DNA of 64,000 nucleotides from Gemmatimonadota bacterium (GTDB lineage: Bacteria; Gemmatimonadota; Gemmatimonadetes; Palauibacterales; KS3-K002), in the NCBI GenBank assembly GCA_039586755.1, contig JBDHJU010000011.1:14412-78411 (forward strand), written 5' to 3'. This document shows positions 1,908-20,584 of the stretch, in pieces. The notes beneath the pieces were generated by a model. It made no database searches, had not been told where the DNA came from, and worked only from the letters and a program-made list of their open reading frames with translations. Positions within the stretch are counted from its first letter, which is position 1; the number at the start of each line of letters is the position of its first letter. The position numbers and the translations under genes were made by a program.

Positions 1908-2080
1908 CGGTATCCTCGATCGATTACTGGTTGCCGTGGGGATCCGTGCGCAGTCGATCACCTTGCCGGTATGGCTCGAAGAAACAACGCCTGACATAGG
2001 ACAAGCCTGGGAGTGTGGAGCGGCCGGAACCTTCGAGCGTCGTGCCGTGACGCCCGAAGATCCCGGAGCTCGTGAACTAC

Positions 2081-3989: not shown

Positions 3990-4457
3990 CTAGAGCGTTG
4001 GGACCTTGTCCATCTTGACCGGGCCGCGCTCCGTGTTGAGGCCCTGCGGCTCGCACATCAGCGTCGCGCTCTTCAGGTCATCGTCGCCTGTCGGATAGTG
4101 ATCGAACGGCTGAGCCTTACCTTCCTCGACGCCCCTGCGGATCGGGAACTTGAAGCGTTTCGGCTTGATGTCCTTACTGCGGAACTGCAGGGTCCACATG
4201 ATGTCCTCGCTGCTACGCATCGCCGTGACGCTCGCCCCCAGCGGGACGAAGTCCTGGTAACCGCGGACCTCGATAGCCTGCGTCGGGCAGATCTTCACGC
4301 AGCTGTAGCATTCCCAGCACATCTGCGGATCCTGGTTGAAGGCCTTCATGCTATCCTTGTTCAGGACCATGAGATCGTTCGGACAGATGTGCTGGCAGGC
4401 GGTCTTATCGAGCGCCTTGCAACCGTCACACTTGTCCACAATCACGTAACTCGGCAT
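3990..4457 (-). CDS. aprB: Adenylylsulfate (APS) reductase beta subunit
   Basis: MPSYVIVDKCDGCKALDKTACQHICPNDLMVL...MCWECYSCVKICPTQAIEVRGY...DIMWTLQFR shows the characteristic AprB two-[4Fe-4S] ferredoxin domain plus tail. It lies directly upstream of aprA. Confidence 0.93.
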   Translation of the reverse strand: MPSYVIVDKCDGCKALDKTACQHICPNDLMVLNKDSMKAFNQDPQMCWECYSCVKICPTQAIEVRGYQDFVPLGASVTAMRSSEDIMWTLQFRSKDIKPKRFKFPIRRGVEEGKAQPFDHYPTGDDDLKSATLMCEPQGLNTERGPVKMDKVPTL

Positions 4458-4772: not shown

Positions 4773-6965
4773 TCAGGAGCCGATTAGCGAGGGGAGGTGG
4801 TTCTCGATCCACTCCTCGACCTCGTCGACGGCGGCTGAGAAGTGGGGTTGGGAGCGCATGGCGTCTGCGAAACCGGCAACGGCCCGGTCGAGATCCTCGG
4901 CGGTCCAGAGTGATAGGCCGTTCGGCAAGTCGGTCGCGGGGATGGAGCCGAACGTGTTGAAGTCGATGACCCTGAGGGGCTCGGCGGTGAAATCGCGCAG
5001 ACCGCCCAGGGTTTTGGCATCGAAAAGGGGTTCTTGGCTGTCGACGCCGAAGTAGACGAAACCTGCATGGGCGATGGCGCGGGCGACGCCGGCCTCGGAG
5101 TACGACTGGACACGCAGGCGCTTCCCGTGGCCGACGGCACTGCGCAGCAGCTTGAGCTGGCCGTGGTGCCTCCTGTAGATCAGGGTCATCTGGCTCTGAG
5201 GTACGTCGAAGTGCTCGGACAGGGCGGAGAGGATCGAACGCGAAGTAGCCGATCCCCCGATGACGACGTGACGACACTCGTCCATGTGGGCGCCGTCGAC
5301 CTCCTGGACCCGTGCCAGGGCGGCCAGACAGAAGCTGGGGCTGAAACGACCCCATGCGGTCTCGGCTCGTACGTCGCGCGCGAGAGCCACGGCGTTTTTC
5401 ACCAGGCAGGTCGCTCGCGGACCTGCCGTGCCGGCGCGTTCGGCGGTCCGGCAGGCCGTCTGCAGCTGCGCCACCACGTCGGTGTCCCCGGGCAGGGCAC
5501 TATTCAGGCCGCAGGCGGTGCGCATCAGATGATGCCAGGCCTCGAAACCGAGCAGTGTGTTCACCTCTAGCCCTTCGGTCTCGGGACCGTACAGTCGGTC
5601 GCGGATCTGCTCGGCGACCCGCTTCCGCGCCGCGGGGTCGCCCGGATCGGCGAGCCAGCCGTAGAACTCGATCCGCTGACAGGTACTCCAGACGAACGCC
5701 TCGCTGATACCGGGCATCTCCCGCACCGAGTCGAGGAAGCCACGCACTTGTTTACGGGTCTTCCTAACCTTGCCGAAAACCCGGGGACGGCTGTACCGCA
5801 TGCGGGGACCGCGGCCGGAACGGACTCCGCCCTCGAACGAGGCGCCGATCATCACCAGCGACTCGGGCTCGCCGTCACAGAGTTCCAACTCCGGCTTCAG
5901 CCTCAGCAGCGGAACGGGCGCCGGCCGATCCGCCGTCACCGGACGCGGCCCCCTGAGCACCAGATTCCTGAGGGCTGCGACGAACGGCTCGGACGCGTTC
6001 AACCCAGGGCACAAGCTGAGTTGGCCGCCCCCCGACTCGAAGACCTCCCGGCATTCCACGTCGATCTCCCCCAGCGTCTCGAACCCGTCGATCGGCGCCG
6101 TGATCGCACTGACCAGCACCTTCTTCTCACCCGCGTCGGCGAGCTCGGCGAGCCTCTCGCTGATATGGGGGCGGAGCGAGCAGAGCGGCGCCGGGTGGGT
6201 CAGGAAGCCTAGCGAGGCCCTTTCCAGCGGCCAGCCCAGTCGGTCGGCGACCAGCCTGACCGTCCGTCTCACCTGACCCGTGTAGAGGGCCCCCCCCTGG
6301 CCCCGCGAGGCCGGCTGGCCGTGAGCGCAAAAGACCAGGTGCGCCTCATCCGGCCACAGGCCCTCCGACGCGGCATAGTCGGCGATAATTCGGGCCTGCG
6401 CTTTGACGTAACCCACGTCGTCATACCAGGTGGATCGAAGCGCCACATTGATGTGCTGCCCCCTGTGCCTCAGCACTCGGTGCAGCTCGCGAAGGATGGT
6501 GCCGGACGTGGCACGGTTGAACTGAGGGTACATCGGCACGACCACCAGATCGTCGATGCCGTCGGCTTCTACCTGGCTCATGACGTCGGCTATCTTCGGC
6601 TGGCCGTAGCGCATGGCCACGTAAACGGCCCAAGCCTCGGGCAGCGCCGCGGCGAGGGCCGAGGCCTGATCCGACATGAGGACCGCCTGCGGAGCTCCGC
6701 GCACGTCCCAGACTTTGCCGTACAGATCGGCTGAGGGGGCAGCCAGGCGCCCGGCCCGCATACGGCCGAGACCCCGCTGAAGCCAGTTCAGCCCCTGAGG
6801 CCACTTGACGAGCGAGGAGTCGGTGAATGACTCCGCCAGCAGCTTGCGCACCGATGGAACGTCGGGCCGATCGGGCGCTCCTAGACCGACCAGCAGGACG
6901 CCCCGGCGTCGCGAAGCCTGTGGTGGGCGATCCGCGCCCAATGACGGCTCTGTCTGGAGGTTCAC
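4773..6965 (-). CDS. Fusion protein: N-terminal ferrochelatase (HemH/class II chelatase) domain plus C-terminal glutamyl-tRNA reductase (HemA)-like domain
   Basis: 730 aa. N-terminal half: VLLVGLGAPD...VVVPMYPQFNRATSG...VFCAHGQPASRG...IDGFETLGEIDVE, a ferrochelatase pattern. C-terminal half: AFVWSTCQRIEFYG (the GluTR catalytic-Cys STCNR-E motif), ALPGDTDVVAQL, and a degenerate VVIGGSATSRSI nucleotide-binding site. Confidence 0.7.
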   Translation of the reverse strand: MNLQTEPSLGADRPPQASRRRGVLLVGLGAPDRPDVPSVRKLLAESFTDSSLVKWPQGLNWLQRGLGRMRAGRLAAPSADLYGKVWDVRGAPQAVLMSDQASALAAALPEAWAVYVAMRYGQPKIADVMSQVEADGIDDLVVVPMYPQFNRATSGTILRELHRVLRHRGQHINVALRSTWYDDVGYVKAQARIIADYAASEGLWPDEAHLVFCAHGQPASRGQGGALYTGQVRRTVRLVADRLGWPLERASLGFLTHPAPLCSLRPHISERLAELADAGEKKVLVSAITAPIDGFETLGEIDVECREVFESGGGQLSLCPGLNASEPFVAALRNLVLRGPRPVTADRPAPVPLLRLKPELELCDGEPESLVMIGASFEGGVRSGRGPRMRYSRPRVFGKVRKTRKQVRGFLDSVREMPGISEAFVWSTCQRIEFYGWLADPGDPAARKRVAEQIRDRLYGPETEGLEVNTLLGFEAWHHLMRTACGLNSALPGDTDVVAQLQTACRTAERAGTAGPRATCLVKNAVALARDVRAETAWGRFSPSFCLAALARVQEVDGAHMDECRHVVIGGSATSRSILSALSEHFDVPQSQMTLIYRRHHGQLKLLRSAVGHGKRLRVQSYSEAGVARAIAHAGFVYFGVDSQEPLFDAKTLGGLRDFTAEPLRVIDFNTFGSIPATDLPNGLSLWTAEDLDRAVAGFADAMRSQPHFSAAVDEVEEWIENHLPSLIGS

Positions 6966-7459
6966 GGCTGGGGTTTGAGCTTGCGATCCTGGCCGATGAG
7001 ATCGGTGATCTGGTCGCGTGTGCGTCTCGCCAGCGCCGGATCGCGTCCATCGGTGAAGACGGCGATCGTGACGTCCTCACTTTGCAGCAGAGCTCCAAAG
7101 ATTACCTGCGAGCGCTCGGCCGATGACGCGTCGCACGCCAGTGCGCCGTTCCGAACTGCAGCTTGGACGACGGCGGCGTTGCGGTCATCCTCATCCGTGG
7201 CGGCGACGGCGAGGAACTTGCTACCCATGTGCTCTTCGCGGAACGAGTCCTGTACCCAGCGGACGCGGCCGGCCTCGATCAGCTGGGCGAGCTCGTCTGT
7301 AACCTCGGGTGATACCACGGTAACGACGGCCCCGGCATGCGTGAGGGTGATGACTTTGCGAGTCCCGACATTTCCGCCACCCACGACCAGGCAGTCCTTG
7401 TTCCGGACGTCGAGTCCTAGCGGCAGAAAGCGTAGCCTGTCCGAGGGGTCGCTGGTCAT
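6962..7459 (-). CDS. sirC: Precorrin-2 dehydrogenase / sirohydrochlorin ferrochelatase-type protein (SirC / CysG N-terminal domain-like)
   Basis: LPLGLDVRNKDCLVVGGGNVGTRKVITLTHAGAVVTVVSPEV...LAVAATDEDDRNAAVVQAAVRNGALAC is the typical siroheme synthase N-terminal Rossmann domain. GTGA overlap with the downstream fusion gene. Confidence 0.75.
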   Translation of the reverse strand: MTSDPSDRLRFLPLGLDVRNKDCLVVGGGNVGTRKVITLTHAGAVVTVVSPEVTDELAQLIEAGRVRWVQDSFREEHMGSKFLAVAATDEDDRNAAVVQAAVRNGALACDASSAERSQVIFGALLQSEDVTIAVFTDGRDPALARRTRDQITDLIGQDRKLKPQP

Positions 7460-7488: not shown

Positions 7489-7941
7489 TCAGTGGCCGAC
7501 GCTCAATATACCGCTCGCCGCGAGTGTCAGGATGGCAGCCTCCAACAGGGCCATGACCACGTAGGGCGTATCTCGTTTCTTGATTAGCGTGGGGACGATT
7601 CCCAAGAAGCAGAAGATGGTCACTGCGGAAAGCACGGCGATCCCCAGAAAATTCAGATAGTCACCCTTTCCGATCACGGACAGCCAGGACCATCCGGATA
7701 TCGGGTGCTCATGGTGCAGGTGGTCGTGATTCGTCGCCTCCAGATAGTCGTGGACGTTCATCGTCCAGTACTCGGGGAGTTGTTCCACCGGAACGGCCGG
7801 CGCAACGATGCCGCTGGTGTAAAGGGCAAAGGTCACGAGTAGGAGGGCCAGCCCGAAGTACATGCCGGTCTGGAGGATCTTGGCGTAGAGGAGTTGTTCC
7901 TCGTCAGCGCCAGGGCAATCTACGTTGCCGTTCGTCTCCAT
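7489..7941 (-). CDS. Small polytopic membrane protein, possibly the DUF1634-type partner of TauE/DUF81 permeases
   Basis: 150 aa with about four hydrophobic helices and a His-rich loop (HDHLHHEH). It lies 15 nt downstream of the TauE-like gene. The family assignment is from memory of gene-neighbourhood patterns only. Confidence 0.4.
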   Translation of the reverse strand: METNGNVDCPGADEEQLLYAKILQTGMYFGLALLLVTFALYTSGIVAPAVPVEQLPEYWTMNVHDYLEATNHDHLHHEHPISGWSWLSVIGKGDYLNFLGIAVLSAVTIFCFLGIVPTLIKKRDTPYVVMALLEAAILTLAASGILSVGH

Positions 7942-7956
7942 GTTTACACTCGCTCC

Positions 7957-8910
7957 CTAAACGATGAACGGGAGGCCGAGTCCCTTGGTGATCGCCTTGG
8001 CCCCGGCGAAGAGCAGCAGGGCGATGACGACCCAGCGAACGAACCCCGGCCTCGCGATCCGCAGGATTCGTACGCCGATAAACGACCCCAGCATTATGCC
8101 TACCAGTGACGGCACTACCATCATTGGGATTACGGCGCCCTTGTTAACATAGATCCAGGCCGCCGACGTGTCAGTGATTGACAAAAGGAATTTGCTGGTC
8201 GCCACACTGACCTTGAGCGGCGCTCCCATCACCAGGTTCAGAACCGGGATGTTGGCCCAACCGGCGCCCAGTCCGAACATCCCCGCCATCACGCCTATAA
8301 CAATGAACAGTAGCAAGCCGGGCACAGTACGGTGAACCTTCCAGTTGATCGTCTGACCCATGCTCGCCTCTGTGTACACGCCACAGATCCGCAACGCCGA
8401 AGAGACACGGTCTGGCTCAGCGACCTCCGGGAACACCGATTTCTTCGCTGCGATCATTATCGCGACAATCCCCAGGATGGTCGCTCCGAGGGCTGTCTGG
8501 ACAATATTCGTCGGTAGAGCGAGGCCGATCATCGCTCCGACGATCGCACAAGTCGAGGCGATCAGGGCCACAGGCATCGCCAGGCGCAGGCTGGCCAGGT
8601 TCATCTTCAGGAAGCCCGGCCCGGCGGCGAGCGCGCCGCTTAGCGCCACCAGAAGCCCACAGCCGCGAACGAAGTCGAGGTGGAAGGGAAAGAACCCACT
8701 CACGATCGGAACGAACAGAACGCCTCCGCCCACACCGCCCAGAGCCGCGAGGATGCCCATGACGAACGTGAGCACGAACAGGATGAGCGGCCACACCCAC
8801 CATGCTGTCGTGCTGCTGGAGACCGCTGGCGCCGTCAGATCGCTCGCCTGGATGACGGTTGGGTAGAGCAGCAGGAAAAGGCAGAGAAGTGCGCCCGTAA
8901 GATACGGCAT
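7957..8910 (-). CDS. tauE: TauE/SafE (DUF81) family sulfite/organosulfonate anion exporter
   Basis: Polytopic and Gly-rich: LGGVGGGVLFVPIVSGFFPFHLDFVRGCGLLVAL...GLGAGWANIPVLNLVMGAPLKVSVATSKF. The likely start is MPYLTGALLCLF at 8910. The ORF is open to 8988, but that extension looks like a relic of another gene (see findings). Confidence 0.75.
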   Translation of the reverse strand: MPYLTGALLCLFLLLYPTVIQASDLTAPAVSSSTTAWWVWPLILFVLTFVMGILAALGGVGGGVLFVPIVSGFFPFHLDFVRGCGLLVALSGALAAGPGFLKMNLASLRLAMPVALIASTCAIVGAMIGLALPTNIVQTALGATILGIVAIMIAAKKSVFPEVAEPDRVSSALRICGVYTEASMGQTINWKVHRTVPGLLLFIVIGVMAGMFGLGAGWANIPVLNLVMGAPLKVSVATSKFLLSITDTSAAWIYVNKGAVIPMMVVPSLVGIMLGSFIGVRILRIARPGFVRWVVIALLLFAGAKAITKGLGLPFIV

Positions 8911-8965
8911 GAATCGTCGCGTTCCTAAGATGTTCACCTGGCCTCGACTCGGGGTTCCACGCGAC

Positions 8966-8984
8966 ATCGTGATAATCGCACGAT
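8966..8984. promoter_or_regulatory. Perfect 6-bp inverted repeat ATCGTG-N7-CACGAT upstream of tauE
   Basis: Plus strand atcgtg (8966-8971), ataatcg, cacgat (8979-8984). It lies 56-75 nt upstream of the probable tauE start and shares the AATCGTG core with the aprBA upstream repeats. Confidence 0.35.
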
Positions 8985-9183
8985 TCAACCTGATGCGAGA
9001 TATGCTCGGCGGCGCGCGGTGTCAAGCTGAGCGGAGTGTGGGCTGTCTCATCGCTGGAGAAAGGTCGAGCAATATGATATCTTGCGGTGGCCGCTTTTCT
9101 CGTGCGAGGCCTCGCGACGTATTGCGCCTCGCGAGTCCGAAGGCGCTCAGCATCCACGCGAGCCCACATGTGGGCCAGGAGTC

Positions 9184-9834
9184 ATGAGCACGACTGAAGA
9201 TCGGGAAGCGGCGTTTATAGGCAAGATAACCGCCGGCGCCACCCATGAGCTCCGCAACGTTCTGGCAATCGTAAAAGAATCTGCGGGCCTGATCGAAGAC
9301 ATCGTCAATTCCCCCGACAAACCTGGGACAGATAAAGCCGACAGGCTAATGCGGCCGATTGCGCGGATTCGGGACCAGGTCGAGCGCGGATCGGAGCTCC
9401 TCACGAGCCTGAATCGATTCGCCCACAGCATGGATCACGCAGAGGACGAGACCGACCTGAACGAGATGGCCGAGCTGCTCGCGTTCCTATGCCAGCGAGC
9501 GGCCAGAAGGGGGAGGCATCTGGTAGAAGCGCAGCCGGGGGACCAGGCCCTGACGGTAGTGGCCAACCTGCTTCGGCTGCAGATGGCTCTGCACGCAGCC
9601 GTCGAGTGCTGTCTTGAGCAGTTGCCCGAGCGTGGCAAGCTGACCCTCAAGGCGGTTCGGCACGGAGATCGACCGGCGCTCGAGTTCAATGGTGAGTCCG
9701 AGGGTGAGGCAGTTTCATTCGTGCCAAACGAGGCCGCAGCTTGGAGCCGGCTGGCGGCGGTCCTCGACGACCTGGATGCATCGGTGGAGAAAGCCGAAGC
9801 AGAGCAGGGTTTCCGGCTCGCCCTTTCGGGGTGA
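9184..9834 (+). CDS. Soluble histidine-kinase-like protein with an intact H-box but a degenerate ATP-binding domain
   Basis: MSTTEDREAAFIGKITAGATHELRNVLAIVKES contains the HisKA H-box. I could not recognise N, G1 or G2 boxes in the C-terminal half. CAGGAG lies upstream of the ATG at 9184; the ORF is open from 9082. Confidence 0.55.
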   Translation: MSTTEDREAAFIGKITAGATHELRNVLAIVKESAGLIEDIVNSPDKPGTDKADRLMRPIARIRDQVERGSELLTSLNRFAHSMDHAEDETDLNEMAELLAFLCQRAARRGRHLVEAQPGDQALTVVANLLRLQMALHAAVECCLEQLPERGKLTLKAVRHGDRPALEFNGESEGEAVSFVPNEAAAWSRLAAVLDDLDASVEKAEAEQGFRLALSG

Positions 9835-9858
9835 TGCGAGCTTGGCAGTGGGGAGGAT

Positions 9859-10785
9859 TTGATGAGCAAAATCAAGCTGCTCCTCGTCGATGACGAAGAA
9901 GCCTACGTAAAGACGCTGGCCGAGAGAATGGAGATGCGCGACGTCGGCAGTCGCGTGGCCTTGAGCGGCGAAGAGGCGCTGGAGATGCTCGAGGACGAGC
10001 CGCCCGACGTGATGGTTCTCGACCTCCGCATGCCGGGCATCGACGGGATGGAAGTGTTAGAGCGGGTCAAGCAGAAGCATCCCCACGTAGAAGTGATCAT
10101 TCTCACCGGGCACGGCTCGGACAGAGAGGAAAAGGAGGCGCGCAGGCTGGGGGCGTTCGAGTACCTGCAGAAGCCGGCGGATACGAGTCACCTCCTGAAT
10201 ACCGTTCGGGCGGCTTGGCGAAAGAGCTTGAAGGCCGCCGCCGAGTTCATCAAGGACTCGCAGGAAGAATTCGACAGGAGCATGGCTGCGGCAGCTTTCG
10301 CTGAGGCGGGCGCGCCGGAGATCGCCAGGGAGACGATGCAGGAGTCGACCCCGCGACCCGACGTGGACACCGATGAAGCCGGCGCCGCGGAGGCCGACGC
10401 CGCCACTCAGACGCTCAAGGTCCTGTTCGTTGATGACGAAGAGGACTTCGTGCGGACCATGGCCGAACGAATGGAGATGCGCGACGTGGGCAGCGAGGTG
10501 GCGCTGGATGGACAGCAGGCATTGGAGATGCTCGAGGACGAAGTACCGGACGTCATGGTTCTCGACCTGCGTATGCCGGGCATCGACGGCTTGGAGGTAT
10601 TGCGGCGCGTCAAGAGGACGTATCCAGAGATGGCAGTGATCATCATGACCGGCCATGGGTCGGAGGCGGACGAAGCAGAAGCTCGCCGCTTGGGGGCGTT
10701 TGATTACCTGACCAAGCCGGTCGACATCAATCAGCTCATGGATGTTATCCGCGAAGCGGGTCGCTCGCGTCGGAAAGCGGAGTAG
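9859..10785 (+). CDS. Tandem double-receiver (REC-REC) response regulator with no output domain
   Basis: Two CheY-like domains. Each has DD (LLVDDEE / LFVDDEE), a phospho-acceptor Asp (VMVLDLRMPGIDG in both), T (ILTGHG / IMTGHG) and K (YLQKP / YLTKP). An acidic or Ala-rich linker joins them. Confidence 0.85.
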   Translation: MMSKIKLLLVDDEEAYVKTLAERMEMRDVGSRVALSGEEALEMLEDEPPDVMVLDLRMPGIDGMEVLERVKQKHPHVEVIILTGHGSDREEKEARRLGAFEYLQKPADTSHLLNTVRAAWRKSLKAAAEFIKDSQEEFDRSMAAAAFAEAGAPEIARETMQESTPRPDVDTDEAGAAEADAATQTLKVLFVDDEEDFVRTMAERMEMRDVGSEVALDGQQALEMLEDEVPDVMVLDLRMPGIDGLEVLRRVKRTYPEMAVIIMTGHGSEADEAEARRLGAFDYLTKPVDINQLMDVIREAGRSRRKAE

Positions 10786-10809
10786 GGATGGGCGGTCGGG
10801 TTAACGAAG

Positions 10810-12573
10810 ATGATGGTGGAGACGGTAAGCCTGGTTGACGGAACGGGGGAAGATCAAGATCAACTGATCTCCCGACGGCGCTACAGGAAGATGATTCTCG
10901 TGGCGGTGCTTTCGGTATCGGCTGTAGCCGTCGCTCCGCTTCTCATCATGTCGAGTATTACCTACCACCAGTATCAGGAGGCGTTCCGAGCTGAGCTGAC
11001 CCGCCCCATGCTGCGGTTCGCCGTGGCCGGTAAGCAGGCGATCGAGTCCTACCTCTCGGAGCAGGTAGCGGCTCTCGCCATGGTGGCGCGCGAGACGTCG
11101 CTCAAGGAGCTTCGTGACCCGGGAAGGTTGAGCTCGTTGCTCACCAACATGAACCAGACCTTTGGCGGAGTGGTCGAGCTCAGCATGATCAACGAGGGGG
11201 GCGTGCAGGTCGCCTATGCCGGTCCGGGGGAGCCGCAGGCGGTCAGCTACGCGGACGATCGGTGGTTCCGAGAGGTCAGCGCCCGCGGCACGTACGTTAG
11301 CGACATGTTCCTGGGGCACCGAAACGACCCCCACATGGTTGTCGCGATCCAGCACGAAGACTCGGAAGGGAATCGGTACATCTTACGTGCGACGCTCGAT
11401 ACCGATCCATTCCACTGGCTAGTGCGCGCTCGTACGGCCCGCCGTCCGGAACTCAACCAGGTCTGTCGCAGATGCCATTCGCTGGGGGCCCAACAATTCA
11501 GCGACGCGTTCATCGTCAACCGCGAAGGTGTCCTGCAGAGTTCCTCGCGTCTTTATGGCGGCGTGTTGGAGCGCACCCCCTTACCGACTTTTCCGTACAG
11601 CAGTCAGGTGGAGCTTGTCGATGTAGTGGACGAGCAGGGAGAGCCGCTCATCGTATGTTACGCGCAGATCGATCGCTCGCCGTTTACGCTGGTGGTGTTG
11701 AGTCCTCGCATCGCTCTGCACGCGGGTTGGTTCCCGCTGCGCCGCGACCTGCTGGTATTTCCGGCGATCAGCGTCGCGCTGATTCTGGCAGTCGTCATCT
11801 GGGGTTCGATCTACGTGGTGAACCGCGTTCGCGAGGCGGATGCAAAGCGCGCGGCGCTCTACCACAAGATGGAGTACACCAACAAGATGGCCGCTATCGG
11901 GCGCCTGGGTGCCGGTGTGGCTCACGAGATCAACAACCCGCTGTCGATCATCACCCAGAACGCGGGACTGCTGAAGGATCTGATCACGCTGTCCGAGGAG
12001 TTACCCCCGAGGGATAAGCTGACCCATCTGGTGAATTCGGTTCTCAACGCCGCCGAGCGCTGTGGTGGGATTACCCACCGTCTCCTGGGTTTCGCCAGGC
12101 ACATGGAAGTGCAATGGGAGACTATCGATCTCGATGGGTTGCTCAGAGAAGTCCTGGAGTTCCTTGGGAAGGAAGCCAGCTACCGTGACATCCAGATCGA
12201 ATTCAAATACTCCGGTACGCCGCCTCCCATCGTCAGCGACAGGGGGCAGTTGCAGCAAGTGTTCCTGAACATCGTCAACAATGCTTTCGCCGCAGTCGAT
12301 GATGGTGGGCAGATCGAGATTGGGATTGAACAGCTTGGGGACGACGCCGTTGCGGTGACCATCGCCGACGATGGCGTAGGCATTCCTGAGGAACAGCTGG
12401 GGCAGATCTTCGATCCGTTCTTTACGACGAAGAAAGGTGCGGGGACGGGCCTGGGTCTCTCCATTACATATGGGATAGTGCAAAAACTGGGTGGGCAGAT
12501 CAGCGTCGAGAGCAAGGTGGGTGAAGGTACCTGCTTCACAGTCACACTGCCGATACGTCGGGCGCACGCCTAG
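10810..12573 (+). CDS. Membrane sensor histidine kinase with a periplasmic double-Cache-like domain
   Basis: TM1 near residue 30 and TM2 LLVFPAISVALILAVVIWGSIYVV. H-box AAIGRLGAGVAHEINNPLSII, N-box QVFLNIVNNAFAA, G-boxes DDGVGI and GTGLGLSI. The periplasmic segment contains CRRCH. Confidence 0.85.
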   Translation: MMVETVSLVDGTGEDQDQLISRRRYRKMILVAVLSVSAVAVAPLLIMSSITYHQYQEAFRAELTRPMLRFAVAGKQAIESYLSEQVAALAMVARETSLKELRDPGRLSSLLTNMNQTFGGVVELSMINEGGVQVAYAGPGEPQAVSYADDRWFREVSARGTYVSDMFLGHRNDPHMVVAIQHEDSEGNRYILRATLDTDPFHWLVRARTARRPELNQVCRRCHSLGAQQFSDAFIVNREGVLQSSSRLYGGVLERTPLPTFPYSSQVELVDVVDEQGEPLIVCYAQIDRSPFTLVVLSPRIALHAGWFPLRRDLLVFPAISVALILAVVIWGSIYVVNRVREADAKRAALYHKMEYTNKMAAIGRLGAGVAHEINNPLSIITQNAGLLKDLITLSEELPPRDKLTHLVNSVLNAAERCGGITHRLLGFARHMEVQWETIDLDGLLREVLEFLGKEASYRDIQIEFKYSGTPPPIVSDRGQLQQVFLNIVNNAFAAVDDGGQIEIGIEQLGDDAVAVTIADDGVGIPEEQLGQIFDPFFTTKKGAGTGLGLSITYGIVQKLGGQISVESKVGEGTCFTVTLPIRRAHA

Positions 12574-12582
12574 GAGCGGCAC

Positions 12583-12969
12583 ATGGACCCCTTACGTGTT
12601 CTGATCGTCGACGACGAAGCCGAGCTGGTCACCGCCCTGGAGGAGCGGCTCAACCTGCGGGGGTTCGAGGCCAGGGGTGTGACGACCGGCGCCGATGCGC
12701 TCGCGCTACTCGCCGAGCTGCCGTTCGATGTGGTGCTACTGGACTTGAAGATGCCGGGGCTCGGCGGGTTGGAAGTCATCAGGAGGATCAAGCAAGAGCA
12801 ACCGGGGCTAAAGGTAATCCTGTTAACAGGTTGGGGCTCCGAGGAAGACGCCGAAAAAGGGAAGGCACTCGGGGCCTACGACTACCTGATGAAGCCCGTG
12901 AAGATCAGCGACCTGGTGCGGGTCCTGCTCTCCGCCTGTGACCGGGAGGAGGAGGAAAGAGAAGAATGA
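12583..12969 (+). CDS. Single-domain response regulator (CheY-like receiver)
   Basis: VLIVDDEAE...VVLLDLKMPGLGG...LLTGWG...YLMKP, with an acidic C-terminal tail. Confidence 0.85.
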   Translation: MDPLRVLIVDDEAELVTALEERLNLRGFEARGVTTGADALALLAELPFDVVLLDLKMPGLGGLEVIRRIKQEQPGLKVILLTGWGSEEDAEKGKALGAYDYLMKPVKISDLVRVLLSACDREEEEREE

Positions 12970-13397
12970 ACGAGAGCACCGTGCTGCTCGTCGATGACGA
13001 GGAGGAGTTCGTCGAGGTCTTGGCGGAACGGTTGGAGACGCGCGGTCTCACGGTGGACACCGCGGGGGACGGCGAGCTGGCGTTGGAGAAGGCGGGGAAG
13101 CGGTCGTTCGATGCCATCGTCCTCGATATGGCCATGCCGGGCATGGACGGCATCGAAACTCTCAAGGGGCTGCTCCGGATCAACCCGGACCTGCAGGTCA
13201 TTCTACTGACCGGTCGCGCGACCCTGGGCCAGGCGGTGGAGGCGATGAAGCTGGGGGCGTTGGATTTTCTGGAGAAGCCGGTAGACATCGAAACGCTGGT
13301 GGCGAAGATCGAGGAGGCGGCGACGAAGAAATCGTCACTCAAAGAGAAACGCATCGCGGACAAACTGTCCGACATCATGCGAAAGAAGGGCTGGTGA
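12966..13397 (+). CDS. Single-domain response regulator (CheY-like receiver)
   Basis: VLLVDDEEE...AIVLDMAMPGMDG...LLTGRA...FLEKP. 4-nt overlap with the preceding receiver gene. Confidence 0.85.
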   Translation: MNESTVLLVDDEEEFVEVLAERLETRGLTVDTAGDGELALEKAGKRSFDAIVLDMAMPGMDGIETLKGLLRINPDLQVILLTGRATLGQAVEAMKLGALDFLEKPVDIETLVAKIEEAATKKSSLKEKRIADKLSDIMRKKGW

Positions 13398-13927
13398 CAG
13401 TGGAAGCCATGAGGCGCATCAAGGAAATCATGATTCCCGTGGAGCAGTACCCCTCGGTGCGGGACAACGCCACGCTACGGGAAGCGATTGTGAAGATCGA
13501 GGAAGCGCAGCTCGAGGTCGAACTGCGCAAATCTCTGCCTCGTGTGCTGTTGGTGTTCGATGAGATCGACGTGCTGGTCGGGACGGTTCGGCGCCGCGAC
13601 ATCATGAGAGGTTTGGAGCCGAAGTATCTGCTTAGCAAGCCACTGGAGTACAAGAAGAAGCTGTTTGATATAGCTGTAGATCCCAATCTAGCGGAGCTTT
13701 CCTACGATCGGGTCGTACGAGGGATCAGGGAGCAGTCGAATAGGCCGGTGAGCGATGTGATGCAACCGATTCCAGCGATCCTCGATGCCGAGGATCACGT
13801 CATGAAGGCAGTGCAGGCGATGGTCGCTCTCGACGTCAACCTGATTCCGGTGCTTCGGGAGGGGAAGCTCGTCGGTGTCGTGCGGTCGGTCGACGCGTTT
13901 CACGACCTGGCCCAACTGGTGAGATAG
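13394..13927 (+). CDS. CBS-pair domain protein
   Basis: IKEIMIPVEQYPSVRDNATLREAIVKI...LVGTVRRRDIM and VSDVMQPIPAILDAEDHVMKAVQAMVALDVNLIPVLREGKLVGVVRSVD are two CBS motifs. GTGA overlap with the upstream gene; an alternative ATG lies at 13409. Confidence 0.8.
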   Translation: MTVEAMRRIKEIMIPVEQYPSVRDNATLREAIVKIEEAQLEVELRKSLPRVLLVFDEIDVLVGTVRRRDIMRGLEPKYLLSKPLEYKKKLFDIAVDPNLAELSYDRVVRGIREQSNRPVSDVMQPIPAILDAEDHVMKAVQAMVALDVNLIPVLREGKLVGVVRSVDAFHDLAQLVR

Positions 13928-13968
13928 TAGCGGCCCTATTTGGGACCGCTCGCGAGGTCGTCGCTACC

Positions 13969-15498
13969 ATGACCGATGAGGCGTTGTCCGAGAGAGTGAC
14001 AGCCATACCCGGCGCCGGGGGAGTCGAGCTGGCTCGCCCGAAGGGCGCCGATGAGACCCAGGAGGCTGATTGGAAGAGGATTGTCTTCATCCTGCTGGGC
14101 TTGGTTCTCTTCGTTCTGGTTTACATCGCGCCCATGCCGGATCCAGCGGTGGACCCACAGGGCCAGGCCTTCCCGCTGACGCGGGAGGGTAAGGCGGCGC
14201 TGGCTCTGTTCTTCCTCGCGGCGACCTGGTGGGTTACCGAGGTGATCCCCATCGGGGTAACCAGCATCGCTATCGGCGTGTTCCAGGCGCTGTTCTTGAT
14301 TCGCCCCGCCCGTGTCGCCCTCACCGATTTCATGGATCCGTCGGTCTGGTTCATCTTCGGCTCGCTGGTCTTCGGGATGGTCTTTACCAAGACCGGTCTC
14401 ACACGGCGGCTGGCGTACAAGATGCTGTCGCTGGTTGGAGAGCGGACGAGCATGATCTATCTCGGCTGTTACGTGATGACGGCGTCGCTGACGCTGGTCA
14501 TGGCGCACACGGCTGTGGCCGCCACCGTCTTCCCGCTCTTCCTCGCCATCTACGCCCTGTATACCGAAGAGAGTGAGCCGACGCGATTCGGTAAGGGATT
14601 GTTCATGGGGATGGCCTTCGTCGCCGGCGCCGGCAGCATCATCACGTTGCTCGGCGCCGCTCGCGGCGCGGTGGCGATCGGTTTCTTCCGGGACATCTCG
14701 GGCCGGACGATCAGCTTCTTCGAGCTGAGCTACTACATGCTTCCGGTCGGCTTGGTGATGACGGCCCTCCTCTGGGCCTACTTCATGCTCTACTACCCGC
14801 CGGAGGAGAAGACGATTCCCGGACTGCGGCAACGAGTTCAGAGCCTGTACGCCAGGCTGGGCCCCATCAGCCGTAACGAGATCATGGCTGTAGTGATCGT
14901 CTTCTCGACGATAGTAGTACTGAGCCTCCGCTCTTTCATTCCCGCCCTGGAGCCGCTCGACAAAAGTGCGATAATCCTCGTCGCTACGGTCCTGTTCTTC
15001 GTGTTTAGGGTCGTGTCATTGGAGGACCTGGAGCACACCTCGTGGAACATCGTGTTGCTGTTCGGCGGCGCGATGAGCATCGGTTTCTGCCTGTGGCAGA
15101 CGGGTGCGGCGGAGTGGCTGGCGGTAAAATGGCTTGGCCTGCTGCACGGCACACATTGGCTGTTCTTCGTGATTGGTGTGGCGGCGTTCGTTCTCGTGAT
15201 GACCAACCTGATCATGAACGTCGCGGCTATAGCTATCACGGTGCCGGTGGCGTTGGTCATTGCTCCATATGTAGGAGTTGCCCCCGAGGTGATCCTCTTC
15301 GCGTCGCTCGTTGCCGCGGGGATGCCCTTCCTGCTGCTGGTCGGCGCAGCACCCAACGCCATCGCCTACGCAAGCAACCAGTTCACTACGGGAGAGTTCT
15401 TCCGGGCGGGGATCCCGGCCAGCCTGCTGCTGCTCGTGGTGCTGGCGCTGTTCGTCTGGGTGATATGGCCGGCGATGGGGATGCCGGTGCTGTTATAG
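13969..15498 (+). CDS. DASS/SLC13-type (ArsB/NhaD superfamily) anion:cation symporter, candidate sulfate transporter
   Basis: 509-aa polytopic protein: FLAATWWVTEVIPIGVTSIAIGVFQALF...GGAMSIGFCLWQTGAAEWLA...AAPNAIAYASNQF, the typical SLC13/DASS pattern. The sulfate substrate is inferred from context only. Confidence 0.7.
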   Translation: MTDEALSERVTAIPGAGGVELARPKGADETQEADWKRIVFILLGLVLFVLVYIAPMPDPAVDPQGQAFPLTREGKAALALFFLAATWWVTEVIPIGVTSIAIGVFQALFLIRPARVALTDFMDPSVWFIFGSLVFGMVFTKTGLTRRLAYKMLSLVGERTSMIYLGCYVMTASLTLVMAHTAVAATVFPLFLAIYALYTEESEPTRFGKGLFMGMAFVAGAGSIITLLGAARGAVAIGFFRDISGRTISFFELSYYMLPVGLVMTALLWAYFMLYYPPEEKTIPGLRQRVQSLYARLGPISRNEIMAVVIVFSTIVVLSLRSFIPALEPLDKSAIILVATVLFFVFRVVSLEDLEHTSWNIVLLFGGAMSIGFCLWQTGAAEWLAVKWLGLLHGTHWLFFVIGVAAFVLVMTNLIMNVAAIAITVPVALVIAPYVGVAPEVILFASLVAAGMPFLLLVGAAPNAIAYASNQFTTGEFFRAGIPASLLLLVVLALFVWVIWPAMGMPVLL

Positions 15499-15520
15499 GA
15501 GCGACTGCTGGCGTGAGGGA

Positions 15521-16339
15521 CTAGGGGTACGGGTCAAACCACTCGACGTTCAGGCGAACCTGATCTACGCCCGGTACCGAGCGGGCGATCTCCACGATCT
15601 CTTGCCCCATCCGGCCGGACTTGAGGGCCGGAGCGCTGCCGGATACCTCTATTACTCCGTCGTGCCCTTCGATCTGGAGATCGAGGACGCGAGTCTCGCG
15701 CGTGCTCGCCAGGGCGGCCTTGACCCGAGACGCCATACGGAAGTCCATGAGCTTTGCCTTCACTTCGGGGGTGACGGCGAAGTCCGGCTGCCTCACCGCC
15801 CGCGCCACGATATTGCAGGCGGCGGGCACCGACAGGGTCTGCAGGTTGATCACCATATCGTACAGTGCCGGATCCTCGATGTCCTCACCGTACATCATCT
15901 TGACCCAGCGGGCCCGCGCTGCGTCGACGTGCTGTATGTACTCTTCGGCTGAAGTCGGGGTCATTTCGTTACGCTCCAGCAGCGTAGACACTCGTGCGCC
16001 CATGGGAGCGATCAGGCGCACCCGCAAAACAGCTGGAAGTCCCGCGAGCAGCATTTGCCCAGCGCGACCGTGGTAGACCAGATCTCCGCCGACGGTGTGT
16101 TCGGCGAGGGCTGCCTGGATTGTCGCGATGTAAGCACGCCGTACCGACGCGTGCCGCTTCCACAATCTCGGGGCGCGCTCCATCGCGCGGCTCAGCTCCT
16201 GCTCTGAAATACCGAGCTCAGAGGCCGCATCCTGAAGGACCTCCCGCGCAACCAGCGGATACTGAAGTTCCTCAGCAAGGCATTCCGCCAGCGCCTGGCC
16301 GCCGCTTTGCGTGCCCCGACAAATACTTATAATAGCCAC
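15521..16339 (-). CDS. Cytidylate-kinase-like family (Cytidylate_kin2-type) protein with a C-terminal BON domain
   Basis: MAIISICRGTQSGGQALAECLAEEL is the family-typical N-terminus and lacks the Walker-A Lys. C-terminal part: VKAALAS...LQIEGHDGVIEVSGSAPALKSGRMGQEIVEIARSVPGVDQVRLNV, a BON-like pattern. Confidence 0.6.
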   Translation of the reverse strand: MAIISICRGTQSGGQALAECLAEELQYPLVAREVLQDAASELGISEQELSRAMERAPRLWKRHASVRRAYIATIQAALAEHTVGGDLVYHGRAGQMLLAGLPAVLRVRLIAPMGARVSTLLERNEMTPTSAEEYIQHVDAARARWVKMMYGEDIEDPALYDMVINLQTLSVPAACNIVARAVRQPDFAVTPEVKAKLMDFRMASRVKAALASTRETRVLDLQIEGHDGVIEVSGSAPALKSGRMGQEIVEIARSVPGVDQVRLNVEWFDPYP

Positions 16340-16342
16340 GTC

Positions 16343-16990
16343 TCAGCCTTCTCCCGCCTGTTGGAGCTGCTCGCGGCACTTGGCTGCAAAGGCTGCGAGC
16401 TTCTGCTTCACATCGTCGGTCATCTCGTACTGTGGCTGTGCCGCCGCTTCTGCGATGATCTCGCACGCCGTCTCGAGGGAGATCGACTGCAGGTTGATGG
16501 TTAGATCGTATAACGAAGGATCCTCGACATCCGCCCGGTACATCAGCTTCACCCAACGCCGGCGGTCTTCGTCCACGTCTTGAATGAACTCCTCGGCCGC
16601 CTTATGGGTCATGCGGTGGTGCGAGTCCATCAATGCCCGCATGCGCATCTCGAGCGGCGCGATGAGCCGGACAGCCAGTACGCCGGGAAGCTCACGCAGC
16701 AGGAATTGCCCGGCCAGTCCGTGGTAAACCACTTCACCGGTCGTACAGTGCTCGGCCAGGGCAGTCTGAACGGCGAGCAAATACGTCTTGCGCTCCTGGG
16801 TCAGTCGAGCCCAGCGAGATGGGGTCGCCTCGAGCTTGCCGCTCAGATCCTCCTCTGACGCTCCTAACTTCTTGGCGGCCTCCTGAAGGATCTCGCGCCC
16901 GACGCAGGGATAGTTGAGCGCGCGGGCGAGACACTCCGCCGTCGCGCGGCCTCCGCTAAGCGTTCCACGGGAAATCGTAATAATAGCCAC
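16343..16990 (-). CDS. Cytidylate-kinase-like family (Cytidylate_kin2-type) protein, paralog of 15521-16339
   Basis: MAIITISRGTLSGGRATAECLARALNYPCVGREILQEAAKKLG is colinear with its neighbour over about 200 aa (VYHG.AGQ.LL..LP.VL.VRLIAP...RRRWVK.MY..D.EDP.LYD..INLQ). There is a 3-nt gap to the next gene. Confidence 0.6.
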   Translation of the reverse strand: MAIITISRGTLSGGRATAECLARALNYPCVGREILQEAAKKLGASEEDLSGKLEATPSRWARLTQERKTYLLAVQTALAEHCTTGEVVYHGLAGQFLLRELPGVLAVRLIAPLEMRMRALMDSHHRMTHKAAEEFIQDVDEDRRRWVKLMYRADVEDPSLYDLTINLQSISLETACEIIAEAAAQPQYEMTDDVKQKLAAFAAKCREQLQQAGEG

Positions 16991-17190
16991 GATGCGGTCC
17001 TTTCAGGCGCGTCGTTGGCATCTTTGGAGGTTGGGGGGGCAAATCGTGCCCAAGAACAAGATAGGGTCAAAGCCCGGGGGCGGGAAACCGGTGGCCTGTA
17101 GCTGCCCGCTTGTGAGTTGTGGGAACCTCGGGCAGATTGTCCCGGCCAATCCGACCCGAGTTACCGCAGACCCGCACAGGAGGATACGCC

Positions 17191-17634
17191 TTGAGGAGCA
17201 GATATCTGGTAATCGTGTCACTGGCTTGCGCGGCCGCGTTCGCGGCGGGAGCACTCGCGCGCCAGCCCGCCGCGTCGGGTCAGGAGGCGTCGCCGGAGTC
17301 GTCGAAGCTCGCCGTGCTGTGGAGCAGCGGCGACCGGGACGTGGCGTTGAAGATGGTCTTCATGTACACGCTTAACGCCGAGCGACGTGCCTGGTTCGAC
17401 GAAGTCCAGCTCATCGTGTGGGGGCCCTCGTCGAAGCTTCTCTCGGTCGACGAGGAGTTGCAGGCCGCTATCCGGGAGATGGGTGAGGCCGGTGTGGAGC
17501 TCGTCGCCTGCAAAGCGTGCGCCGACAGTTACGGAGTGTCGGAAAAATTGGAGGAGCTAGGCGTCGAGGTGAAGTACATGGGCGTGCCGCTCACCGAGAT
17601 GCTCAAGAGAGACTGGGTGGTGGTGACGTTCTGA
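17191..17634 (+). CDS. DsrE/DsrF-like family protein with a predicted N-terminal signal peptide
   Basis: TTG at 17191 lies 6 nt after GGAGGA. LRSRYLVIVSLACAAAFAAGALA looks like a signal peptide. The mature part reads LAVLWSSGDRDVALKMVFMY...LIVWGPS...GVELVACKACADSYGV...VKYMG, DsrE-like. Confidence 0.6.
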   Translation: MRSRYLVIVSLACAAAFAAGALARQPAASGQEASPESSKLAVLWSSGDRDVALKMVFMYTLNAERRAWFDEVQLIVWGPSSKLLSVDEELQAAIREMGEAGVELVACKACADSYGVSEKLEELGVEVKYMGVPLTEMLKRDWVVVTF

Positions 17635-20447: not shown

Positions 20448-20584
20448 GTTTTCCTCCCGGTTCTTGGTTCAGCTGTTGTTGGTTAGGTATCAGACATTCT
20501 CGTCAAGAGACAACGCCAAGGCAACCGGGGGTTCCGGCAGCTCCATGGCGAAGAGAAGCGACGCGGGCGCCCGCTCGGCACTCA

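Follow-up and report, generated by a model that had tools for sequence, protein, structure and literature searches.

A conserved seven-gene operon of Gemmatimonadota encodes a predicted Spo0-like phosphorelay together with a CBS-pair protein and a DASS anion permease

We describe here a seven-gene operon in which the parts of a predicted phosphorelay are encoded together with a CBS-pair protein and an anion permease of the DASS/SLC13 family. The operon lies in a stretch of 64,000 nucleotides (nt) from assembly GCA_039586755.1 of a Gemmatimonadota bacterium (contig JBDHJU010000011.1, positions 14,412 to 78,411 of the forward strand); this whole stretch is referred to as the window, and all coordinates are given within it unless a locus number precedes them. 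A check of the open reading frames (ORFs) places seven plus-strand genes, called g1 to g7, at 9184-15498. This agrees with an earlier description of the DNA made from its letters only (the sequence-only reading), which had reported a block of seven genes with gaps of 41 nt or less and two 4-nt overlaps. Reading along the strand, g1 (9184-9834; 216 amino acids (aa)) encodes a predicted Spo0B/ChpT-like histidine phosphotransferase, g2 (9859 or 9862 to 10785; 307-308 aa) a tandem receiver of the form REC-linker-REC that lacks an output domain, and g3 (10810-12573; 587 aa) a membrane sensor histidine kinase with a Cache-like domain, HisKA and HATPase_c. Two single-domain receivers follow, g4 (12583-12969; 128 aa), in a Spo0F-like position right after the kinase, and g5 (12966-13397; 143 aa), which carries a C-terminal helix of about 25 aa. 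The last two genes encode the CBS-pair protein g6 (13394-13927; 177 aa), with a long insert between both CBS motifs, and the DASS/SLC13-family anion permease g7 (13969-15498; 509 aa). The junctions from g1 to g7 measure 24, 24, 9, -4, -4 and 41 nt. A consensus scan found no sigma-70-like promoter inside the block, and the sole match of a terminator scan of the block (14274-14292) falls within the g7 coding sequence, with a count below that expected from shuffled sequence.

To place the operon among its relatives, a profile of the CBS protein was run against GTDB representative genomes, where it recovered 47 species-level loci. The set used for comparison comprises 48 non-redundant loci, including one contig identical to the window, and the window proteins were mapped onto it by tblastn; individual loci are cited by L numbers. 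The genome scan behind the set relied on motif patterns, and the loci returned include no Desulfobacterales. Identical proteins are found on contigs of several NCBI metagenome-assembled genomes (e.g. GCA_039586265.1), and homologues are named Gemmatimonadota or Gemmatimonadales. A survey of the neighbourhood of the CBS-DASS gene pair, as the sequence-only reading had proposed, reveals a conserved order. The DASS gene lies 3′ of the CBS gene on the same strand in 40 of the 42 loci with room for it, and one further locus of this kind, the 41st, has a frame-broken CBS gene. A receiver gene lies directly 5′ of the CBS gene in 41 of 45 loci. Among the 32 loci with more than 4.5 kb of upstream sequence, 28 contain a g3-type kinase and 29 a g1-type protein. 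The module loci belong to Gemmatimonadota, Myxococcota, Phycisphaerae, Ignavibacteria, Pseudomonadota and others, at least five phyla in all. The Gemmatimonadota order is g1-g2-g3-g4-g5-g6-g7. In loci from Myxococcota, ‘Deltaproteobacteria’, Phycisphaeraceae and Pseudomonadota, the order is [Cytidylate_kin2-BON-REC]-kinase-REC(g4)-g1-REC(g5)-CBS-DASS; one unclassified bacterium has this second order, but with a stand-alone receiver in first position. Such an arrangement is far beyond chance, and the first ground for refutation given in the sequence-only reading, an order shared with no relative, does not apply.

The sequence-only reading had counted two HisKA proteins in the operon. For g1, however, Pfam gives only a weak HisKA match (E 8e-4) and no HATPase_c match. 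Its H-box reads T-H21-E-L-R-N, wherein His21, E22 and N25 are invariant in 32 homologues, and the pattern of the family is T-H-E-x-R/N-N. This family comprises 380 homologues of around 216-220 aa, nearly all of them with no Pfam domain on record. Its profile aligns to the dimerisation and histidine phosphotransfer (DHp) and N-box region of Thermotoga ThkA, an alignment that shows a conserved E-C-C in place of the N-box Asn and no G1 or G2 box. An AlphaFold2 (AF2) model with a pLDDT of 90 comprises a long helical hairpin and an alpha/beta domain; Foldseek matches it to the class-I kinase cores HK853 and DivL, with the highest TM-scores (0.51-0.53) obtained for ChpT (4fmt and 4fpp). Taken together, sequence and model identify g1 as a predicted Spo0B/ChpT-like histidine phosphotransferase, composed of a DHp domain and a degenerate domain resembling a catalytic and ATP-binding (CA) domain, predicted not to bind ATP. 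If so, the system as a whole would be a His-Asp-His-Asp relay. The earlier count is therefore right for g3, which is a kinase, but not for g1. We rejected the idea that g1 is a second kinase, as it has no ATP-binding motifs, and consider a DivL-type pseudokinase less likely, as the phospho-accepting His and the E-x-x-N are invariant. The DHp sequence of g1 resembles that of g3, which suggests that g1 descends from a duplicated kinase; it looks like a decayed g3 kinase core.

The kinase g3 has clear HisKA (E 1.8e-8) and HATPase_c (E 5e-29) matches, and aligns over the full length of the AtoS and ZraS kinase cores. Hydropathy places hydrophobic segments, taken as transmembrane helices, at approximately residues 27-50 and 312-340, flanking an extracytoplasmic domain of about 260 aa. 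The dCache_1 match of this domain is sub-threshold (22 bits against a cutoff of 45), but the assignment is supported by full-length homology to kinases that do have dCache_1 matches, including the kinase of locus L054, which is 31% identical to g3 over its full length and whose gene call has such a match. We also see that the sensor domain of g3 contains an insertion of 17 codons (11428-11478, plus strand; residues 207-223) that ends in C219-R-R-C-H223. The insertion is found in 26 Gemmatimonadota orthologues, all of which keep both Cys and the His, with variation at the two inner residues. The orthologues that lack it are those of L017, L030, L033, L035, L037 and L038, which are Gemmatimonadota or unclassified, and all those outside Gemmatimonadota. 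As the motif falls between the two transmembrane helices, i.e. in the extracytoplasmic domain, it is a probable c-type haem site, which would add redox sensing to the kinase.

All four receiver domains of the operon have an intact phospho-acceptor pocket. In g2, Pfam detects Response_reg twice (E 4e-57), and the pocket residues are D11, D12, D55, T83 and K105 in the first domain and D192, D193, D236, T264 and K286 in the second; the two halves are 67% identical to each other. Single Response_reg domains are detected in g4 (E 3e-29) and g5 (E 4e-30), each with a pocket formed by D10, D11, D54, T82 and K104, residues that are conserved in 39 orthologues. The residues and the Pfam matches confirm that the four receivers keep the DD/D/T/K set with no DNA-binding or enzymatic output domain, and no DNA-binding or enzymatic domain was detected with Pfam and NCBIfam in any of the seven operon proteins. 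The suggestion of a multi-receiver relay without transcriptional output is in this respect well founded, as no receiver carries an output domain. The g5 gene lies directly 5′ of the CBS gene in 40 loci, and its stop overlaps the g6 start by 4 nt. We propose that g5 is the terminal receiver and acts on the CBS protein and DASS permease. Its C-terminal helix ends in Gly-Trp, which is at least 95% conserved across phyla; this dipeptide may be where the CBS protein or the permease docks.

For g6, Pfam recognises CBS (PF00571; E 3.6e-12) in two stretches, and profile searches match the CBS-pair structures MJ1225 and MJ0100. The conservation of g6 is unusually high: of 1295 homologues, the best 120 are all at least 65% identical to it. 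Two Arg-rich motifs are conserved, G-T-V-R-R-R-D at residues 63-69 (family form G-x-V-R-R-R-D) and G-V-V-R-S-V-D at 161-167. An AF2 model built from a 15-sequence alignment reached a pLDDT of 46, too poor for fold or pocket analysis, and was not used. The permease g7 exceeds the cutoff of the TIGR00785 ‘dass’ family (222.9 bits against 198.6), matches PF00939 (Na_sulph_symp) with E 6e-49, and aligns to VcINDY over residues 79-500. Its first hairpin tip is G-A-A-R-G-A, with an Arg, as opposed to G-S-P-P-N-A in VcINDY. The subgroup of g7 is highly conserved; orthologues from different phyla are 60-93% identical to g7, and within a library of representatives at 50% identity the orthologous group reaches about 43% identity, after which there is a gap down to 34% or less.

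Independent indications of how these proteins work together come from gene fusions. In L021, L039 and L042, a second DASS gene beside the module encodes a permease with an N-terminal receiver (REC-DASS), 25-28% identical to g7. REC-DASS genes were located at L039:16633-18723, L021:14493-16622, L054:10001-12034 and L056:10001-12088. The fusion proteins are about 680-700 aa long, their receivers keep D-D/D/T/K, and the permease also has an Arg at the first hairpin tip. At E ≤ 1e-10 we find 1854 homologues; the best 120 of these all carry both PF00072 and PF00939, are at least 60% identical and measure 616-744 aa, and come from Latescibacterota, Zixibacteria, ‘Deltaproteobacteria’ and Pseudomonadota. 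They are annotated only as ‘SLC13 family permease’ or ‘anion permease’, and an extra hydrophobic segment lies between receiver and transporter core. We found no report of receiver-DASS fusions in the searchable literature. Other DASS representatives with N-terminal extensions (558-881 aa) contain no receivers and are unrelated to these fusions.

Around the REC-DASS fusions we see a paralogous module comprising dCache kinase, CBS protein, REC-DASS and REC. In L054, the trailing receiver of this module shares 39% identity with g5, and its CBS protein aligns with g6 from end to end at 26% identity (E 3e-16). A second type of fusion, in L056, joins a receiver to a CBS pair in a protein of 294 aa whose gene adjoins a DASS gene. 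Residues 2-131 of g5 align to residues 7-138 of this protein (41% identity, E 1e-24) and residues 7-173 of g6 to residues 135-287 (27% identity, E 1e-10), so that the fusion reproduces, in one protein, the order of the overlapping genes g5 and g6. The CBS pair is also found in a kinase, as L058 encodes a CBS-HisKA-HATPase protein. That receivers are fused to permeases and to a CBS pair in paralogous modules points to direct contact between receiver, CBS pair and permease in their function, and supports the earlier suggestion that the permease is controlled at the protein level rather than by transcription.

A third fusion concerns the flanks of the operon. Convergent with g7 is a minus-strand gene for a Cytidylate_kin2-BON protein (15521-16339; 272 aa; Pfam), which is paired with a second Cytidylate_kin2 gene on the same strand (16343-16990; 215 aa; Pfam). 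Both genes co-occur in 12 loci; in Gemmatimonadota they are separate genes beside the module, in variable position and orientation. In Myxococcota, Phycisphaerae and Pseudomonadota loci, a Cytidylate_kin2(-BON)-REC fusion is the first gene of the operon, and its receiver best matches both halves of g2 (55-62% identity, versus 43-45% for g4 and g5). This similarity argues for a link between g2 and the Cytidylate_kin2-BON proteins, making the latter a probable partner or output of the g2-type receiver. The sequence-only reading had named the CBS protein and the transporter as the only plausible effectors. They are the most plausible local effectors, but not the only ones, given that the Cytidylate_kin2 genes belong to the conserved set and are fused to receivers elsewhere. 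Receiver-fused Cytidylate_kin2 genes lie at L041:5441-6715 and L052:3410-4855. The P-loops of the two window proteins are degenerate, with S-I-C-R-G-T-Q-S-G-G instead of G-x-x-G-x-G-K-S/T. In PDB and NCBIfam, the Cytidylate_kin2-BON protein matches uncharacterised structural-genomics entries (3fdi, 3hdt) and otherwise gives only sub-threshold similarity to CMP kinase.

On the other side of the operon lie genes related to sulfur metabolism. Divergent from g1 are minus-strand genes for a TauE/SafE (TSUP) family permease (7957-8910; Pfam) and an AF_1016-like small protein (7489-7941; Pfam). This pair is beside the module in 13 loci, all Gemmatimonadota, with differing orientations. Further upstream on the same strand are a sirohaem-synthase-type NAD-binding protein gene (6962-7459), lying between aprB and the operon, and a fusion of ferrochelatase with an N-terminal glutamyl-tRNA reductase domain in a single 730-aa ORF (4773-6965); the latter fusion is conserved in at least nine related loci. 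The APS (adenosine 5′-phosphosulfate) reductase genes are aprB (3990-4457, minus strand) and aprA (approximately 2047-3939, minus strand). They had been described as adjacent to the operon, which is not accurate: aprBA is near, but on the opposite strand and with five genes between. The reading frame of aprA is broken near 2941-2944, wherein a stop occurs after around 343 codons and the sequence continues in another frame (ORFs 2908-3939 and 2081-3082). In the relative L016, aprA is intact, with the extra stretch DEKSAKKKLKELEA at the position of the break, and for the species of the window the gene call in the database measures 630 aa; the break may be either an assembly deletion or a real pseudogene. 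Downstream of the Cytidylate_kin2 genes are a DsrE-like gene and, at 18864-22894 on the minus strand, two large sulfatase genes (527 and 769 aa) along with a gene for a HAD hydrolase; these genes suggest organosulfate esters as a local source of sulfate. Among those ORFs of the window that were scanned, dsrAB, sat and qmo did not turn up. A marine Gemmatimonadota clade from the Bohai Sea is reported to have DsrAB, Sat, AprAB and QmoABC (PMC11316326), and the host is probably a sulfate reducer of marine sediment. In the Zixibacteria locus L054 (CP070796), dsrC and dsrM- and dsrK-like genes (L054:3935-6398) lie a few genes upstream of the paralogous module, an independent association of this type of module with dissimilatory sulfur metabolism.

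We also looked for regulatory elements at the DNA and RNA level. A conserved element, AATATGATATCTTGCGGTG, lies at 9071-9089 on the plus strand, some 95-113 nt before the g1 start, and elements of the type ATGATATCTTGC occur at a similar distance 5′ of g1 in L007, L009, L010, L012, L013, L015, L016 and L050. The consensus scan did not call the window element a sigma-70 promoter; it is a putative -10 region or operator of the operon. TCGCGA-type repeats in the g1 leader were also considered as an operator and rejected in favour of the ATGATATCTTGC element, as they are kept in the nearest relatives only. No sigma-54 -24/-12 site was found upstream of the operon, where the match count was below the chance expectation, and 7800-17200 contains no Rfam match to a riboswitch or known RNA. 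Within the 41-nt g6-g7 spacer, directly after the CBS stop, RNAfold predicts a GC-rich hairpin without a T-tract (13929-13950, plus strand). Hairpins with differing stem sequences are also predicted in L014, L009, L012, L013, L016 and L021, and were not seen with the same program in L038, L039 and L046. The hairpin may be an intercistronic element for RNA stability or attenuation, setting the ratio of regulator to transporter expression.

Overall, we favour a reading wherein a Cache-type kinase, in this lineage possibly with a haem c, feeds a Spo0-like relay that ends at g5, and g5 and the CBS pair jointly control the DASS permease at the protein level, with a side branch through g2 and with sulfate as the probable substrate. 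We put the probability of this reading at roughly 0.55. In it, g3 would sense an extracytoplasmic signal through its Cache-type domain, which in this lineage would include the c-type haem site, then autophosphorylate and feed a His-Asp-His-Asp relay resembling that of Bacillus sporulation. Phosphate would pass from the g3 kinase to g4 (Spo0F-like), on to g1 (Spo0B/ChpT-like) and finally to g5. This order is weakly indicated by the non-Gemmatimonadota loci, which place g4 after the kinase and g5 after g1. Lacking an output domain, g5 would act by contact on g6, g7 or both, which would be made from the same, translationally coupled message as g5. Because g5 would act by contact on the CBS protein and the permease, the activity of the latter would depend on two inputs, namely an external or redox signal arriving via the relay and an internal ligand of the CBS pair, perhaps an adenine nucleotide or an anion. 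The side branch would lead from the tandem receiver g2 to the membrane-associating Cytidylate_kin2-BON proteins. The permease would most likely import sulfate for dissimilatory reduction. As regards the earlier proposals on ligands, sulfate is a probable substrate, and APS, AMP or ATP a possible ligand of the CBS pair.

Several observations weigh against this reading. The ribose-phosphate motif of adenosyl-binding CBS pairs is G-h-h-S/T-x-x-D, and both corresponding motifs of g6 have an Arg at the usual S/T position, which makes nucleotide binding uncertain. In g7, the positions of the SNT motifs of VcINDY are occupied by A-H-T and M-N-V, and its sequence therefore does not tell which substrate and coupling ion it uses; these two motifs and that of the hairpin tip are invariant in 38 orthologues. 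Only the closest Gemmatimonadota and the Zixibacteria locus L054 have sulfur genes within 10 kb. The order of phosphotransfer is drawn from gene adjacency, and in four of five comparisons the best match of the REC-DASS and REC-CBS receivers is g5, but its lead over g2 is small. A transcriptional layer may also coexist with protein-level control, as related clusters hold a HisKA_3 kinase and a REC-GerE regulator, and the regulators in clusters of sulfate reducers are described as WalR-type (PMC11887813).

This last point leads to an alternative in which the circuit is purely transcriptional, with a relay that ends on a distant DNA-binding regulator of operon expression, or with receivers that merely buffer phosphate, and with the CBS protein and permease as co-transcribed cargo, the CBS protein working on its own. 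The Desulfobacteraceae clusters have been read as systems of sensor histidine kinases and WalR-type response regulators driving synthesis of the transporter (PMC11887813). The HisKA_3 kinase and REC-GerE regulator lie by the Cache-kinase and DASS genes in L055, L056, L058, L039 and L040, and the conserved element at 9071-9089 could serve as an operator. However, none of the four receivers has a DNA-binding domain across some 40 species, there is no DNA-binding regulator in the operon or its immediate flanks, and in paralogous modules receivers are joined in one polypeptide with the permease or with the CBS protein, the usual mark of an output domain. We therefore regard a purely transcriptional circuit as unlikely. 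Less probable again, in our view, is that information flows the other way, such that the kinase and relay are informed of substrate flux or energy state by the DASS permease and CBS protein, and the true output lies elsewhere, for example in the Cytidylate_kin2-BON proteins or a distant target. The CBS-HisKA-HATPase kinase of L058 demonstrates that a CBS pair can be the input domain of a kinase, and the Cytidylate_kin2-BON proteins, from a family that matches structural-genomics entries only, are in the conserved set and receiver-fused in other phyla. Yet REC-DASS proteins carry their receiver at the N-terminus, in front of the permease, as in other regulated outputs, and g3 already has a large extracytoplasmic sensor domain of its own. 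Co-sensing and protein-level gating are in any case not mutually exclusive.

A different question is whether the module is as we describe it but the substrate is something other than sulfate, such as a di- or tricarboxylate, thiosulfate, sulfite, phosphate, selenate or molybdate, in which case the link to APS reductase would be coincidental and specific to the lineage. This would be compatible with the same mechanism. The closest relatives of g7 with solved structures, VcINDY and NaCT, carry dicarboxylates and citrate; its SNT motifs are altered, and module loci of Myxococcota, Phycisphaerae, Ignavibacteria and Pseudomonadota have no sulfur gene within 10 kb. Furthermore, function cannot be assigned from DASS phylogeny alone, as Marietou et al. 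point out (PMC5840216). On the other hand, the operon is surrounded by aprBA, the TauE/TSUP permease, sirohaem-branch genes, a DsrE-like gene and sulfatases, and the paralogous module stands by dsrC and dsrMK-like genes in Zixibacteria. In Desulfobacteraceae, the CBS-adjacent DASS proteins are abundant and constitutive, and those DASS genes studied in D. autotrophicum respond to the level of sulfate. On balance, we consider a substrate other than sulfate somewhat doubtful, and retain sulfate import under protein-level control as the preferred reading.

The predicted relay has well-studied counterparts in KinA-Spo0F-Spo0B-Spo0A of Bacillus and CckA-ChpT-CtrA/CpdR of Caulobacter, which likewise comprise a kinase, stand-alone receivers and a dimeric DHp protein of about 200 aa with a CA-like domain unable to bind ATP. 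The layout matches that of the Bacillus relay, because the kinase is non-hybrid and the receivers stand alone. As with ChpT, which serves CtrA and CpdR, the output would be branched to more than one receiver, and CpdR offers a precedent for a terminal receiver that lacks an output domain and acts by protein contact. In contrast to these systems, g1 shows no sequence-level membership of the Spo0B or ChpT families, the kinase here is not a hybrid, and the relay is proposed to act on a secondary transporter, not on a transcription factor or protease adaptor.

Control of transport by small sensory modules is also well established. CBS domains regulate MgtE, CorC, OpuA and ClC, and the PII-like protein SbtB regulates the bicarbonate transporter SbtA. 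In both cases, as proposed here, a small nucleotide- or ion-sensing module gates a transporter post-translationally, and g6 is like SbtB a separate protein encoded beside its transporter. In known cases CBS domains are mostly fused to the transporter, and to our knowledge none is coupled to a receiver or phosphorelay; g6 differs from the CBS modules of such transporters in being a separate protein that would be coupled with receivers and a relay. Transporters and two-component systems are co-encoded and communicate by contact in several other partnerships, such as DctA or DcuB with DcuS, PstSCAB-PhoU with PhoR, and BceAB with BceS. There, information passes from transporter to kinase and the output is transcription, whereas the fusions described here place the receiver upstream of the permease. 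Covalently bound haem c in periplasmic sensor domains is known from DcrA of Desulfovibrio vulgaris and GSU0582/GSU0935 of Geobacter, which are chemoreceptors. These share with g3 a CxxCH motif in an extracytoplasmic PAS- or Cache-like domain of a transmembrane signalling protein, in an anaerobic organism that respires sulfur or metals. The predicted motif of g3 differs in that it lies in a 17-residue insertion of a histidine kinase and is confined to part of one phylum.

The closest parallel is a cluster around DASS-type sulfate transporters of Desulfobacteraceae, described in 2025 in Science Advances (PMC11887813). The sequence-only reading had held that the architecture was not a described system; this can no longer be maintained, as the DASS/two-component/CBS cluster was published for Desulfosarcina and 26 sulfate-reducing species that have related DASS clusters, together with the same idea of APS or ATP sensing (PMC11887813). 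The cluster includes numerous two-component systems, CBS proteins, fusions of response regulator and CBS, and universal stress proteins; loci named are Dvar_38230-38460 of Desulfosarcina variabilis and, in Desulfobacula toluolica, TOL2_C19430 (response regulator), C19460 (CBS) and C19470 (DASS) (PMC11887813). In D. toluolica, the C19430 response regulator, the C19460 CBS protein and the adjacent C19470 sodium/sulfate symporter are constitutively abundant, and in the authors' proposal external sulfate is sensed by Cache kinases, while CBS proteins couple uptake to levels of APS, ATP or sulfate (PMC11887813). The CBS-adjacent DASS proteins of Desulfobacteraceae are assigned as sulfate transporters (PMC11887813, PMC5840216). 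Marietou et al. (2018) assign TOL2_19470 to clade Ci, a DASS group they call ‘highly conserved’ across phyla, and TOL2_19410, which is 27% identical to it, to the divergent group Cii with lengths up to 691 aa (PMC5840216).

We see the same elements in our loci, namely a CBS gene directly before the DASS gene, a response regulator nearby, Cache kinases and fusions of receiver and CBS, along with a host that probably has a dissimilatory sulfate pathway and a CBS protein that would link APS or ATP status to uptake. The two DASS types of Desulfobacteraceae, about 27% identical, would correspond to the g7 type and the REC-DASS type (25-28%, about 680-700 aa), an orthology we infer from comparing descriptions. 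There are also clear differences. The system described here belongs to Gemmatimonadota and forms a compact seven-gene operon rather than a 30-kb cluster, and its four receivers have no output domain, in contrast to the WalR-type regulators of the sulfate-reducer cluster. The Spo0B/ChpT-like phosphotransferase, the Cytidylate_kin2-BON genes and the haem-c motif of the sensor find no mention in this context in the accessible text of the 2025 report. In short, the operon is a real and conserved form of a known, but mechanistically uncharacterised, kind of DASS/two-component/CBS system.

Such a system matters because, among the steps of dissimilatory sulfate reduction, the uptake of sulfate is the one understood least, and in marine sediments this pathway accounts for the oxidation of a large part of the organic carbon. 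The sole description of DASS/two-component/CBS clusters is comparative and assumes mainly transcriptional control (PMC11887813). The operon and the fusions now provide a testable wiring, from kinase to receiver, phosphotransferase, second receiver and finally CBS protein and permease, and extend the system to Gemmatimonadota and several other phyla. A more general proposal is that DASS permeases include a large class switched directly by two-component phosphorylation, either with the receiver fused to the permease or via a Spo0B/ChpT-like relay and a CBS adaptor. We put this forward tentatively, at somewhat less than even odds, and found no characterised example in the literature of a receiver domain that gates a secondary transporter. 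The SLC13/DASS family, which includes the human citrate and sulfate carriers, may have members that are controlled through phosphorylation of a domain joined to them. Should transport be gated by receiver phosphorylation, this would be a new class of output for two-component signalling, and a His-Asp relay would control the entry of sulfate, the first committed step of dissimilatory sulfate reduction, at the level of the protein. An extracellular or redox signal, received by a haem-c Cache domain, would then be integrated with an intracellular adenylate or anion signal.

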